From IMG/VR virus record IMGVR_UViG_646311924_000023: DNA of 31,944 bases; one strand, given 5' to 3'. This DNA comes from a virus. Taxonomy: Duplodnaviria; Heunggongvirae; Uroviricota; Caudoviricetes. This document shows, in pieces, positions 14,558 through 30,503 of this stretch (positions are counted from its first letter, which is position 1; every line of letters begins with the position of its first letter). The notes below the pieces were generated by a model. The model was given only the letters and a program-made list of their open reading frames with translations. It had not been told where the DNA came from and did no database searches. The translations under genes were made by a program, and so were the position numbers.

Positions 14558-14848
14558 TCACATCTCGTAGGTAATTTTCCACAGGAGATCTGCCGATCCC
14601 CACATCATAAACTCATCATCCCGGCGGTAGTCATACCCCTGAAGATTCATCTTCAGCAGTAATGCACTGAGCCCGGGAACTGCCTCCAGCGCAGGAAGAA
14701 TTTTTTCTTCCATCCACATATCCAGTGCCGAGTCCGGTTCTTTTGCCCTGAGAAAAACCTCAATATGCAGTGTCGCCTCCCAGGTTCCCTCATCAACGAA
14801 CTCGTCAGCAGCAGACGCATCTGTCAGGTAAACAGCAACAGCAGGCAG
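14558..14848 (-). pseudogene. U: 3' fragment of minor tail protein U, truncated at its 5' side by IS629
   Basis: Encodes LPAVAVYLTD...[30 protein letters not shown], aligning to the C-terminal about 96 residues of lambda U; abuts the IS629 left inverted repeat at 14849. Confidence 0.85.
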
Positions 14849-14902
14849 TGAACCGCCCCGGAAATCCTGGAGACTAAACTCCCTGAGAAAGAGGTAAACA
14901 GG

Positions 14903-15229
14903 ATGACTAAAAATACTCGTTTTTCCCCCGAAGTCCGTCAGCGGGCGATTCGTATGGTTCTGGAAAGTCAGGATGAATATGACTCACAGTGGGCGGCAAT
15001 TTGTTCCATTGCCCCAAAGATTGGCTGTACGCCGGAGACTCTGCGTGTCTGGGTTCGCCAGCATGAGCGGGATACCGGGGGCGGTGATGGTGGGCTCACC
15101 AGCGCTGAACGTCAGCGTCTGAAAGAGCTGGAACGTGAAAATCGTGAACTGCGCCGCAGTAACGATATCCTTCGCCAGGCTTCCGCTTATTTTGCGAAGG
15201 CGGAGTTCGACCGCCTCTGGAAAAAATGA
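14903..15229 (+). CDS. IS629 transposase OrfA
   Basis: 108-aa ORF ([30 protein letters not shown]...) with HTH and leucine-zipper region; ends in an A6 run (15221-15226) allowing -1 frameshift into orfB. Confidence 0.93.
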
Positions 15230-16116
15230 TGCCACTGCTGGATAAGCTGCGTGAGCAGTACGGGGTCGGACCGGTATGCAGCGAACTGCATATTGCCCCG
15301 TCAACGTATTACCATTGTCAGCAACAGCGACATCATCCGGATAAACGCAGTGCCCGTGCGCAGCACGACGACTGGCTGAAGAGAGAGATACAGCGCGTAT
15401 ACGATGAAAATCATCAGGTGTACGGTGTGCGTAAAGTCTGGCGTCAGTTGTTACGGGAAGGAATCAGGGTGGCCAGATGTACAGTGGCACGTCTCATGGC
15501 GGTTATGGGACTTGCCGGTGTTCTCCGGGGTAAAAAGGTCCGTACGACCATCAGCCGGAAAGCCGTTGCCGCAGGCGACCGCGTAAACCGTCAGTTCGTG
15601 GCAGAACGACCTGACCAGCTGTGGGTGGCTGATTTTACTTACGTCAGCACATGGCAGGGCTTCGTCTATGTGGCGTTTATCATTGATGTGTTTGCCGGAT
15701 ACATCGTGGGGTGGCGGGTCTCATCGTCTATGGAAACGACATTCGTGCTGGATGCGCTGGAGCAGGCGTTGTGGGCCCGTCGTCCGTCTGGCACCATCCA
15801 TCACAGCGATAAAGGCTCTCAGTATGTGTCACTGGCCTATACGGAGCGACTAAAAGAAGCCGGATTACTGGCATCAACAGGGAGTACAGGCGACTCGTAT
15901 GACAACGCGATGGCTGAGAGCATCAATGGTCTTTACAAAGCGGAGGTAATACACCGTAAGAGCTGGAAAAACCGTGCAGAAGTGGAACTGGCCACACTAA
16001 CGTGGGTGGACTGGTATAACAATCGACGATTGCTGGGAAGGCTGGGCCATACTCCTCCGGCAGAAGCAGAAAAAGCTTATTATGCTTCCATCGGAAACGA
16101 TGATCTGGCAGCCTGA
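15226..16116 (+). CDS. IS629 transposase OrfB (DDE catalytic domain)
   Basis: 296-aa ORF in the -1 frame relative to orfA; IS3-family integrase-core motifs (…[10 protein letters not shown]…, …[18 protein letters not shown]…). Confidence 0.93.
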
Positions 16117-16172
16117 GTTCACAGATAAAACACTCTCCAGGAAACCCGGGGCGGTTCATGAAGTATCATCAA

Positions 16173-16864
16173 AATGACAAGCATTGAAATCGCTGAGTTA
16201 GTGGGAAGTCGTCCAGATAACGTAAAAATATCAATAGAGCGCCTGGCTAAATCTGGAGTTATTCAACTTCCTGCATTGCAGGTTTTCGAAAAAAATCAAT
16301 AACTTAGGGCTGCGCCGTAGTGTCGAGGCTTACGTCTTCGAAGGCGAACAAGGTAAGCGCGATAGCATTATTGTCGTTGCCCAGTTGTCGCCGGAATTCA
16401 CCGCTCGCCTTGTTGACCGCTGGCGAGAACTCGAAGGGGCAACCGCGAAAATACCACAAACCTTTTCTGAGGCATTGCGCCTTGCGGCCGACCTTGAAGA
16501 CCAGAAGGCTGAACTGGAGAAACAGCTTGCTCTCGCAGCACCTAAAGTTGAGTTTGCCGATCGAGTTGGCGAGGCCAGCGGAATTTTGATTGGAAACTTT
16601 GCAAAGGTTGTTGGTATTGGTCCAAACAAACGGTTTGCGTGGATGCGCGATCACAAAATCCTTATTGCTTCAGGTGCCCGGCGCAATGTGCCAATGCAGG
16701 AATATATGGATCGCGGCTATTTCACAGTGAAAGAAACAGCGGTCAATACAAATCACGGAATACAGATATCGTTCACCACAAAAATCACCGGGCGTGGTCA
16801 ACAGTGGCTGACAAGAAAGCTGCTAGATAACGGAATGCTTAAAGTAACAGGGGAGGCTGCTTAA
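16173..16864 (+). pseudogene. Phage antirepressor (Rha-like N-terminus, KilA-C/ANT C-terminus), reading frame broken
   Basis: ATG at 16173 gives a 42-aa Rha-like start that stops at 16299-16301; the antirepressor C-terminal domain continues in another frame (open from 16238, ORF 16385-16864). The frames switch around an A7 tract at 16288-16294. Confidence 0.55.
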
Positions 16865-17469
16865 TGGCTAAACCAGCGCGAAGGAAATGCAAAATCTGTA
16901 AGGAATGGTTTCACCCGGCATTCTCAAATCAGTGGTGGTGCAGCCCGGAACACGGAACTAAATTAGCACTCGAACGACGAAATAAAGAACGCGAAAAGGC
17001 GGAAAAAACAGCAGAGAAGAAACGACGACGAGAGGAGCAGAAACAGAAAGATAAAATTAAGATTCGAAAACTCGCCTTAAAGCCCCGCAGTTACTGGATT
17101 AAACAAGCCCAACAAGCCGTAAACGCCTTCATCAGAGAAAGAGACCGCGACTTACCATGTATCTCGTGCGGAACGCTCACGTCTGCTCAGTGGGATGCCG
17201 GACATTACCGGACAACTGCTGCGGCACCTCAACTCCGATTTGATGAACGCAATATTCACAAGCAATGCGTGGTGTGCAACCAGCACAAAAGCGGAAATCT
17301 CGTTCCGTATCGCGTCGAACTGATTAATCGCATCGGGCAGGAAGCAGTAGACGAAATCGAATCAAACCATAACCGCCATCGCTGGACTGTCGAAGAGTGC
17401 AGGGCCATCAAGGCGAAGTATCAGCAGAAACTTAAAGACCTGCGAAACAGCAGAAGTGAGGCCGCATGA
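16864..17469 (+). CDS. ninG: Recombination protein NinG (Rap)
   Basis: 201-aa ORF ([31 protein letters not shown]...) almost colinear with lambda NinG; TAATG overlap with the preceding gene. Confidence 0.92.
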
Positions 17470-29074: not shown

Positions 29075-29086
29075 CTGGGAGGGTGT

Positions 29087-29193
29087 ATGAAACACCGTGA
29101 AATACGGGCGGCAGTTCTGTCTGCCCTGAAAGAAAATATTTCTGAGAGGGTGAGCTGGTTTGACGGTCGCCCGGTTTTTATTGATGAACAGGA
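29087..29193 (+). pseudogene. U: 5' fragment of minor tail protein U, truncated by IS629
   Basis: MKHREIRAAVLSALKENISERVSWFDGRPVFIDEQ(D) aligns with the lambda U N-terminus; runs into the IS629 terminus at 29194; GGAGGG Shine-Dalgarno after the Z stop. Confidence 0.85.
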
Positions 29194-29235
29194 TGAACCG
29201 CCCCGGGTTTCCTGGAGAGTGTTTTATCTGTGAAC

Positions 29236-30126
29236 TCAGGCTGCCAGATCATCGTTTCCGATGGAAGCATAATAAGCTTTTTCTGCTTCTGCCGGAGGAG
29301 TATGGCCCAGCCTTCCCAGCAATCGTCGATTGTTATACCAGTCCACCCACGTTAGTGTGGCCAGTTCCACTTCTGCACGGTTTTTCCAGCTCTTACGGTG
29401 TATTACCTCCGCTTTGTAAAGACCATTGATGCTCTCAGCCATCGCGTTGTCATACGAGTCGCCTGTACTCCCTGTTGATGCCAGTAATCCGGCTTCTTTT
29501 AGTCGCTCCGTATAGGCCAGTGACACATACTGAGAGCCTTTATCGCTGTGATGGATGGTGCCAGACGGACGACGGGCCCACAACGCCTGCTCCAGCGCAT
29601 CCAGCACGAATGTCGTTTCCATAGACGATGAGACCCGCCACCCCACGATGTATCCGGCAAACACATCAATGATAAACGCCACATAGACGAAGCCCTGCCA
29701 TGTGCTGACGTAAGTAAAATCAGCCACCCACAGCTGGTCAGGTCGTTCTGCCACGAACTGACGGTTTACGCGGTCGCCTGCGGCAACGGCTTTCCGGCTG
29801 ATGGTCGTACGGACCTTTTTACCCCGGAGAACACCGGCAAGTCCCATAACCGCCATGAGACGTGCCACTGTACATCTGGCCACCCTGATTCCTTCCCGTA
29901 ACAACTGACGCCAGACTTTACGCACACCGTACACCTGATGATTTTCATCGTATACGCGCTGTATCTCTCTCTTCAGCCAGTCGTCGTGCTGCGCACGGGC
30001 ACTGCGTTTATCCGGATGATGTCGCTGTTGCTGACAATGGTAATACGTTGACGGGGCAATATGCAGTTCGCTGCATACCGGTCCGACCCCGTACTGCTCA
30101 CGCAGCTTATCCAGCAGTGGCATCAT
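29236..30126 (-). CDS. IS629 transposase OrfB
   Basis: 296-aa ORF identical to OrfB of copy 1. Confidence 0.93.
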
Positions 30127-30449
30127 TTTTTCCAGAGGCGGTCGAACTCCGCCTTCGCAAAATAAGCGGAAGCCTGGCGAAGGATATCGTTACTGCGGCG
30201 CAGTTCACGATTTTCACGTTCCAGCTCTTTCAGACGCTGACGTTCAGCGCTGGTGAGCCCACCATCACCGCCCCCGGTATCCCGCTCATGCTGGCGAACC
30301 CAGACACGCAGAGTCTCCGGCGTACAGCCAATCTTTGGGGCAATGGAACAAATTGCCGCCCACTGTGAGTCATATTCATCCTGACTTTCCAGAACCATAC
30401 GAATCGCCCGCTGACGGACTTCGGGGGAAAAACGAGTATTTTTAGTCAT
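30123..30449 (-). CDS. IS629 transposase OrfA
   Basis: 108-aa ORF identical to OrfA of copy 1. Confidence 0.93.
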
Positions 30450-30503
30450 CCTGTTTACCTCTTTCTCAGGGAGTTTAGTCTCCAGGAAACCCGGGGCGGT
30501 TCA

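Follow-up and report, generated by a model that had tools for sequence, protein, structure and literature searches.

The tail gene U of a cryptic prophage of Escherichia coli O111:H- 11128 lies in two pieces on opposite strands, each abutting a copy of the insertion sequence IS629, which raises the question of how a single gene came to be divided in this way. The window analysed here, a stretch of 31,944 nucleotides, is the ssrA locus of this strain. The arrangement is best explained if the cryptic Stx1 prophage at ssrA is of the CP-1639 type and a segment of it was flipped by recombination between two inverted IS629 copies (probability about 0.88).

Layout of the locus and the two parts of U

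The ssrA (tmRNA) gene, the chromosomal attachment locus of the prophage, occupies positions 698-1060 on the plus strand (ARAGORN, RefSeq). The tail module, which lies outside the inversion (1948-14550, minus strand), comprises the tail fibre gene, lom, J, I, K, L, M, H, T/G and V in the RefSeq annotation; V itself is at 13798-14550 on the minus strand, its stretch 13798-14547 being matched by the Pfam lambda tail tube protein. The inverted segment (16159-29193, plus strand, 13,035 bp) extends from a KilAC antirepressor pseudogene through the U 5' fragment and holds, between these two, ninG, ninH, Q, stx1A (18594-19541), stx1B (19551-19820), lysis remnants, terS, terL, portal, protease/capsid and head-tail genes and Z (28445-29074), as annotated in RefSeq. 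The same annotation bears out the sequence-only reading, which had placed the genes from the antirepressor to Z on the plus strand and those from V to the tail fibre on the minus strand.

A truncated intA (30504-31484, plus strand) closes the locus on the right. It has lost its 5' end, corresponds to about nucleotides 261-1230 of a 1230-nt CP4-57-type integrase gene, and matches the Pfam families Phage_int_M and Phage_integrase without the N-terminal domain. This right-hand integrase is the intA of the ssrA island, a remnant of an ssrA integrative element, and not the phage's own integrase; the CP-1639 record annotates the same site as 'remnant integrative element'. Full-length intA is present in the phi467 record, preceded by a copy of the ssrA 3' end. 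Searching the 11128 locus downstream of the prophage for another such copy (att) gave no meaningful match of at least 12 nt, and the att copy that precedes intact intA in phi467 is deleted in 11128.

The U 5' fragment (29087-29193, plus strand) corresponds to nucleotides 1-107 of gpU and to positions 1-34 of the Phage_tail_U profile, and adjoins IRR of IS629 copy 2. The U 3' fragment (14558-14848, minus strand) corresponds to nucleotides 109-399 and to profile positions 37-130, and adjoins IRL of copy 1. Alignment of both fragments to the intact 399-nt gpU of strain 2014C-3599 revealed no mismatch and covered 398 of the 399 nucleotides, A108 being the only one absent from the joined halves, and no duplication was seen. 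The two pieces together span the full profile of the lambda gpU tail terminator (Pfam PF06141) and represent one contiguous gene, as had been proposed when U was first described as split over two inverted IS629 copies. Comparison with IS-free relatives showed Z-U-V to be colinear there, so that neither the alignment nor the relatives speak against an inversion. U is disrupted in both isomers, also as foreseen.

The IS629 copies

A repeat search of the window found the IS629 copies to be its only long repeats, with inverted arms at 14849-16159 and 29193-30503. The elements proper measure 1310 bp each, the 1311th matching base being a single flanking T. Copy 1 (14849-16158) is on the plus strand with its IRL adjoining 14848, and copy 2 (29194-30503) is on the minus strand with its IRR adjoining 29193; inspection of the junctions showed these two ends to face the U halves, in the orientation claimed earlier. 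Assignment to IS629 (IS3 family) follows from the size of about 1310 bp, the near-identity to a reference (a single nucleotide distinguishes copy 1 from the IS629 copy in Sp15 of O157 Sakai), the transposase ORFs and the terminal repeats. The ORFs, orfA and orfB, are represented in copy 1 by HTH_Tnp_1 at 14903-15226 and rve/HTH_21 at 15226-16113 in Pfam, and RefSeq annotates a programmed frameshift in the transposase. The terminal inverted repeats are imperfect, about 25 bp long and begin with TGAACCGCCCCGG.

The two copies differ by 3 nt in total, all at IRL positions 14-16, which read AAA in copy 1 and GTT, an IRR-like variant, in copy 2, where it renders the 25-bp repeats perfect. Perfect identity of the two copies extends over 1294 bp. 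The polymorphism keeps its flank in both isomers, AAA remaining with U3' and GTT with intA', as expected from a crossover inside the IS body. The GTT variant was also considered as a footprint of the inversion, and this was rejected, since un-inverted strains and CP-1639 have GTT at the same intA' junction. Strain 99.1145 is an outlier at this position, having AAA instead of GTT at its intA' junction.

Un-inverted relatives and the origin of the inversion

Among 5426 complete E. coli genomes, contiguous U5'-IS629-U3' was found in 25 and U5'-IS629-intA' in 2, the inverted form being restricted to 11128 and FWSEC0005. The un-inverted order Z-U5'-IS629-U3'-V is thus carried by 25 complete O111 genomes (99.1145, SF26 102-1, 2015C-3101 and 22 others) in addition to the CP-1639 record, and in this form a second IS629 lies in opposite orientation beside truncated intA. 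The un-inverted twin of the window is 2015C-3101, ordered ssrA-tail(-)-V-U3'-IS629-U5'-Z...terL-stx1-Q-ninG-KilAC-IS629-intA' and having a 9.55-kb deletion in common with it. Its 13,035-bp segment is 99.98% identical and opposite in orientation relative to the flanks; three of its four IS/flank junctions are identical to those of the window, the fourth (J2) has lost 4 nt, and their pairing is swapped. The four junctions are also the same in un-inverted 99.1145 and CP-1639 (AJ304858.2), and SF26 102-1 has the U junctions of the window. The prediction that inverting the inter-IS block would restore canonical lambdoid order is therefore realised in 2015C-3101. The picture is refined by the second IS629 copy that the un-inverted form keeps, located outside any phage gene at a deletion junction.

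Unchanged junctions, apart from the 4-nt loss, suggest homologous recombination within the IS rather than transposition. The segment is bounded at both ends by 1310-bp inverted repeats with 3 mismatches, and the reciprocal isomer exists in 2015C-3101 (with the shorter J2), 99.1145 and CP-1639. RefSeq annotates neither an invertase gene nor short crossover sites, as in a serine invertase system, in the window. An origin by transposition, in which a single IS629 targeted another site of its own molecule and in one step was duplicated while the DNA in between became inverted, appears scarcely credible. An inverted IS pair around an inverted segment lacking direct duplications is indeed the classic footprint of intramolecular replicative transposition, but this rival is largely refuted by the presence of both copies at the same four junctions in un-inverted relatives. 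Moreover, the IS ends show no inverted target duplication, and IS3-family elements, including IS629, transpose by copy-out-paste-in via a circular intermediate (10.1101/2023.06.07.543989), which by itself gives no such inversions.

Reciprocal homologous recombination, probably of the RecA type, would account for the window as follows. The ancestor would have kept the normal lambdoid gene order, all on one strand, and carried two complete IS629 copies inverted relative to each other, one of them in U and the other where a deletion had joined the phage early region to the truncated intA of the neighbouring ssrA island. A 9.55-kb loss would then have occurred in the lineage common to 11128 and 2015C-3101 and, probably last, an exchange within the 1294 bp of identity would have flipped the inter-IS segment in the 11128 line, parting the U halves and placing the Q-stx1-lysis-head genes on the strand opposite V-J-stf. 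The flipped stretch measures 13.0 kb between the copies and 14.3 kb counting one IS. With the opposite isomer present in relatives, the sequence-only proposal of an IS-mediated inversion is supported overall.

The reverse polarity, with the inverted form ancestral and the 25 colinear genomes derived by re-inversion, is very improbable. Recombination between inverted repeats is reversible and both states occur within each sublineage, yet entry of IS629 needs a contiguous U, Z-U-V is colinear in IS-free relatives, and the colinear form is both the large majority and the canonical lambdoid order.

It is somewhat less improbable, though still unlikely, that the 11128 assembly mis-oriented the 13-kb segment, or that both isomers coexist and one was picked arbitrarily. 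Both isomers show the same four junctions, so that the orientation can be settled only by reads or clones that reach across more than 1.3 kb, and that of 11128 (a 2009 Sanger assembly) depends on linkage through 1.3-kb identical repeats. The inverted state is found in just 2 of 27 related genomes, and 2015C-3101, the nearest relative of 11128, is un-inverted. Against this, 11128 is a finished reference genome, and FWSEC0005, an independent assembly from another sublineage, has the inverted linkage too, which shows that the flip does occur in O111; coexisting isomers would equally be an IS-mediated inversion.

The inversion appears from SNPs and indels to have arisen at least twice, since 11128 and FWSEC0005 fall in different sublineages and each groups with an un-inverted strain, a placement drawn from about 30 kb of prophage sequence that inter-prophage recombination could mislead. 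Strains 11128 and 2015C-3101 have diagnostic SNPs and the 9.55-kb deletion in common, and inverted FWSEC0005 and un-inverted 99.1145 have in common 12 other SNPs, a 44-nt terL duplication and a 14-nt indel. A single inversion common to 11128 and FWSEC0005, followed by the deletion, was rejected, as un-inverted 2015C-3101 has the 11128 deletion and SNPs; the grouping of FWSEC0005 with 99.1145 also contradicts it.

Eroded ends, comparison with known systems and prophage decay

A 3-4 bp target-site duplication, direct or inverted, was absent at every pairing of the four IS ends, as noted before, so that the insertion history can be followed only in part. The reference IS629 copy of Sakai has a 3-bp CCC duplication; U::IS629 is without duplication and 1 nt short in every strain, and the absence in the window is no argument against IS629 identity. 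Deletions flanking the intA-side IS explain the missing duplications in part. The further IS629-linked events suspected on this account are visible as the 5' truncation of intA on one flank and the 9.55-kb deletion on the other.

The ancestral IRR flank, TGAAGTAATCCCC, is preserved in FWSEC0005, 99.1145 and CP-1639, and the intact target at this site contains ATAGCAGTATCATC; in 2015C-3101, IRR is followed there by GTATCATC. In the window the sequence TGAAGTA (16159-16165, plus strand) comprises the remnant of the ancestral flank and the deletion junction, with AGTA microhomology at the joint, and leads directly into the 5' part of the KilAC antirepressor pseudogene. The deletion starts 3-7 nt from the intA-side IRR and spans the leftward early (pL) genes through Ant. 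Two IS ends lack 4 nt of flank, a single nucleotide is missing in U and 189 nt are missing in intA'; IS-less alleles have lost 0, 4 or 8 nt. Cross-copy transposase synapsis was considered for the eroded copy 2 junctions of FWSEC0005 and dropped, as the end-flank pairings it predicts mismatch.

The locus agrees with CP-1639, the cryptic Stx1 prophage of E. coli O111:H- 1639/77 (AJ304858.2; Creuzburg et al. 2005, Microbiology 151:941, as cited in PMC2713265 and PMC8065619), in the ssrA site, the stx1 module with stx1AB downstream of Q, the insertion point of IS629 in U, already present in AJ304858.2, the IS629 beside the adjoining truncated intA remnant, and the sequences of all four junctions, the GTT form of IRL among them. 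Unlike the window, CP-1639 is un-inverted and keeps the 9.55-kb pL-through-Ant region with a third, truncated IS629. This early region (erf-ssb-gam, truncated IS629, cII-O-P-nin-ant) is absent from the window, which is a deleted derivative of a CP-1639-type prophage.

IS629 is the commonest IS in EHEC O157 and lies behind many gene inactivations and deletions; deletions adjacent to it, with microhomology joints, can be as short as a few nt or exceed 40 kb, and IEE promotes excision and adjacent deletion (PMC9943667; 10.1101/2023.06.07.543989; PMC3271280). The 9.55-kb AGTA-microhomology deletion, the 4-nt and 189-nt erosions of IS ends and the IS-less alleles resemble this EHEC polymorphism, but the inversion differs from IEE or transposase products in being a reciprocal exchange between two resident copies. 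Chromosomal inversions of E. coli O157:H7 arise from recombination between repeated prophage or IS sequences (PMC8743559). Inverted repeats recombine homologously there, as they probably did in the window, and both cases show the two isomers in closely related strains, although the O157:H7 cases are large, chromosomal and between prophages, and that of the window is a 14-kb flip inside one defective prophage. The tail-fibre switches Gin, Cin and Pin likewise present a phage segment between inverted repeats in two orientations; in the window, however, entire IS elements form the repeats, genes for the head, lysis and toxin lie between them, and function is restored in neither orientation. No account of this particular inversion was found in the literature searched. 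Both the type of event and the prophage were known before, and the case is an ordinary IS-driven rearrangement with no new mechanism.

Tentatively, the IS629-bounded stx1 segment might be a recurrent and possibly reversible flip-flop in O111 (at least 2 events among about 27 complete genomes). Separately, and with equal reserve, the duplication-less junctions with small losses may be abortive copy-out or IEE-type footprints at retained IS ends, a class for which documentation is sparser than for complete excision of the IS.

With stx1, the prophage bears the toxin genes of a major non-O157 EHEC lineage, and the locus is a stepwise record of IS629 immobilising and eroding a toxin prophage. It is of use in interpreting how O111 surveillance genomes vary in structure and lose stx1, and it calls for caution with short-read assemblies, as all junctions are common to both isomers. 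The decay is evident from the broken U, the flipped segment and the loss of the phage integrase, excisionase, repressor and replication genes; in strain 110512 the whole stx1 region is deleted.

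Locus and Prophage Identity

The window corresponds to positions 3315480-3347423 of NC_013364.1, the genome of E. coli O111:H- strain 11128. One end carries smpB and ssrA (tmRNA, 698-1060), and a lambdoid tail module on the - strand terminates in V and the 3' part of gene U (U3'). IS629 copy 1 lies between this module and a + strand block, which comprises a KilAC antirepressor pseudogene, ninG, ninH, Q, stx1A (18594-19541, +) and stx1B (19551-19820, +), the rest being lysis remnants, terminase, portal, capsid, Z and the 5' part of U (U5'). IS629 copy 2 separates U5' from a 5'-truncated tyrosine integrase gene (intA'). 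The prophage is of the Stx1 type published as CP-1639, the cryptic prophage of O111:H- strain 1639/77 (GenBank AJ304858.2; Creuzburg et al. 2005, as cited in PMC2713265 and PMC8065619).

The truncated integrase gene does not belong to the phage itself. In the CP-1639 record it is assigned, as intA, to a 'remnant integrative element'. A full-length 1230-nt intA adjoins the same island genes in the phi467 record and is preceded by a 25-nt repeat of the ssrA 3' end; nt ∼261-1230 of intA are kept in the window. Near the 3' end of this remnant, the 7-nt tandem repeat AAGATCA (4.3 copies, 31444-31473) varies in copy number among strains, others being 7 or 14 nt shorter than 11128. A 45-nt tandem repeat (2 copies, 2497-2587) lies in the tail-fibre N-terminal gene. 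RefSeq flags the tail assembly gene T (13033-13335, -) as an incomplete pseudogene, which may be no more than the programmed G-T frameshift usual in lambdoid phages.

Inversion between the IS629 Copies

Repeat search revealed one long inverted repeat in the window (arms 14849-16159 and 29193-30503). Reading of the element ends gives 1310 bp for each IS629, copy 1 at 14849-16158 (+) and copy 2 at 29194-30503 (-), the 1311th base matched between the arms being a lone flanking T. Copy 1 encodes the expected HTH_Tnp_1 and rve ORFs (Pfam) and differs by 1 nt from an IS629 copy of O157 Sakai. The sole difference between the two copies is at IS positions 14-16, within the IRL end, which read AAA in copy 1 and GTT in copy 2. 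The GTT (30488-30490) makes the 25-bp terminal repeats of copy 2 perfect (IRL = IRR); it is also present at the intA-side IRL in CP-1639 and most O111 genomes, the Sakai copy having AAA. AAA in the intA-side IRL of O111:H8 strain 99.1145 is possibly a gene conversion from the U copy.

CP-1639 and 99.1145 display the canonical prophage order on a single strand: intA', IS629, hyp-ea22-gam-ssb-erf', a truncated IS629, cII-O-P-nin-Ant-KilAC-ninG-Q-stx1, lysis-terminase-head-Z-U5', IS629 and U3'-V...J-stf-ssrA, with the two full IS629 copies mutually inverted. Their junctions read ...CAGCAGGCAG/IRL on the U3' side, ...GAACAGGA/IRR on the U5' side, ...ACACCATA/IRL on the intA' side and IRR/TGAAGTA... 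on the early-region side. The four IS/flank junction sequences are identical in the window, but their partners are swapped. The window has its un-inverted counterpart in strain 2015C-3101, whose gene content is the same; the inter-IS segment there (13,032 bp, 99.98% identity) has the opposite orientation relative to identical flanks. In relatives without the IS, Z-U-V is colinear. The sequence-only reading, that an inversion between the IS629 copies has split U and that its reversal restores lambdoid order, is thus supported by these re-paired isomers, and its factual statements are all correct.

Junction sequences are the same in both isomers, except for a 4-nt loss on the early-region side (IRR end) in 2015C-3101, and the single polymorphism between the IS copies keeps its flank, AAA with U3' and GTT with intA'. 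These observations together indicate a reciprocal exchange within IS positions 17-1310. Intramolecular transposition could also invert the segment, but the new junctions and the inverted target duplication that it would leave behind are not seen; moreover, IS3-family elements transpose by copy-out-paste-in (10.1101/2023.06.07.543989). On the evidence of the junctions, the inversion is most probably the product of homologous recombination between inverted repeats, with presumed RecA dependence.

Every window junction is also present in the un-inverted isomer, so that the 2009 reference assembly owes its orientation to linkage across the 1.3-kb repeats. That the inversion is real biology in O111 is shown by FWSEC0005, which was assembled independently and is inverted as well. 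Across 5426 complete E. coli genomes surveyed, U5'-IS629-U3' is contiguous in 25 O111 genomes, and U5'-IS629-intA' occurs only in 11128 and FWSEC0005. In SD134209 the intA'/early-region junction (H71, 3.34 Mb) lies ∼1 Mb from the U::IS629 junction (H127, 2.31 Mb), a separation suggestive of a large chromosomal rearrangement that broke within the prophage. The window is a well-resolved case of textbook IS-mediated inversion and the IS629-disrupted U is already published; the literature search found no description of this inverted isomer. Only two points are mildly new: that the flip has recurred, and that IS629 ends show a pattern of small erosions.

Deletion and Probable Recurrence of the Flip

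In the window, TGAAGTA/TCATCAAAATG adjoins IRR of copy 1, whereas the ancestral flank is TGAAGTAATCCCC and the intact KilAC 5' region reads ...ATAGCAGTATCATCAAAATG. This three-way comparison indicates a 9.55-kb deletion beginning 3-7 nt outside the IS end with AGTA microhomology (window 16159-16165; 12660-22240 of the FWSEC0005 locus, L003; 3395-3410 of locus L006), which takes out hyp-ea22-gam-ssb-erf', the truncated IS629 and cII-O-P-nin-Ant. Strain 2015C-3101 carries the same deletion and has lost 4 more nt (TGAA).

SNPs and indels pair 11128 with 2015C-3101, and FWSEC0005 with 99.1145, the latter two having in common 12 SNPs, a 14-nt indel and a 44-nt terL duplication. This duplication is tandem, at the equivalent of window 22720-22763, and is absent from 11128, 2015C-3101 and SF26 102-1; RefSeq gives the terL that carries it as a frameshifted pseudogene. 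With one inverted and one un-inverted genome in each pair, the flip arose two or more times or else reverted. In the 11128 line the deletion would have come first and the inversion after, in which case the flipped stretch is the present 13.0 kb plus one IS, ∼14.3 kb, the size originally proposed.

Gene U, IS629 Ends and Prophage Decay

Both U fragments align exactly to one contiguous gene, the intact 399-nt gpU of 2014C-3599: window 29087-29193 (+) is identical to nt 1-107 and the reverse complement of 14558-14848 to nt 109-399, A108 being the only nucleotide absent from the two combined. The pieces cover positions 1-34 and 37-130 of the Phage_tail_U profile (Pfam). The 'phage minor tail U family protein' of 118 aa that RefSeq annotates at 14558-14914 (-; WP_250109666.1) starts inside the IS629 IRL region, so its ORF is a chimera made by the insertion.

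Comparison with intact gpU reveals no target-site duplication at U::IS629, in agreement with the sequence-only reading. The sequence at this insertion (window 29189-29193 and 14844-14848) is ...CAGGA/IS/CTGCC... in CP-1639 and every O111 genome examined, against ...CAGGAACTGCC... in intact U. All of them therefore share an old change in which the duplication and 1 nt disappeared, possibly through a GGA duplication (3 bp) and then removal of 4 nt beside IRL. The intA-side IS lacks a target duplication because its two flanks were never contiguous: one is intA without its first ∼260 nt, the att copy and the phage integrase/excisionase region, and the other is phage early DNA, shortened further in 11128.

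Small losses at IS629 ends are recurrent in this prophage family, as in 2015C-3101 and FWSEC0005. In copy 2 of the latter (L003 35300-35310 and 36610-36620) the IS is intact, AGGA of U5' next to IRR is gone and so are 189 nt of intA' next to IRL. IS-less intA'/hyp junctions show exact removal, a TGAA-microhomology joint, in SD134209 (L013), loss of 4 nt (GTAA) in 7-55 62A (L011) and of 8 nt (ACACCATA) in RM9131 (L012) and RM9975. These alleles look like IS629 excision scars. Together with the end losses they fit published accounts of excision that depends on IEE/transposase and of nearby deletion with microhomology; for O111:H8, IEE has been reported (PMC9943667).

U is broken in both isomers, as originally stated. 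The prophage is devoid of integrase, excisionase and repressor region, and in 11128 the replication genes are gone too. The lysis cassette is degraded as well; the lysozyme gene is only an 81-nt remnant (20225-20305) between stx1B and an Rz-like lysis gene (RefSeq). The element is incapable of forming virions, whichever way the segment lies. Flipping separates V-J-stf from the late operon and adds no obvious phenotype. Outbreak strain 110512 (O111:H-; L014 31990-36769) represents the end-point of the same decay process: an IS629 there has a 5'-truncated tape-measure gene (H) on one side and intA' on the other, and the deletion beside it covers everything from H to stx1, including U and the head genes.
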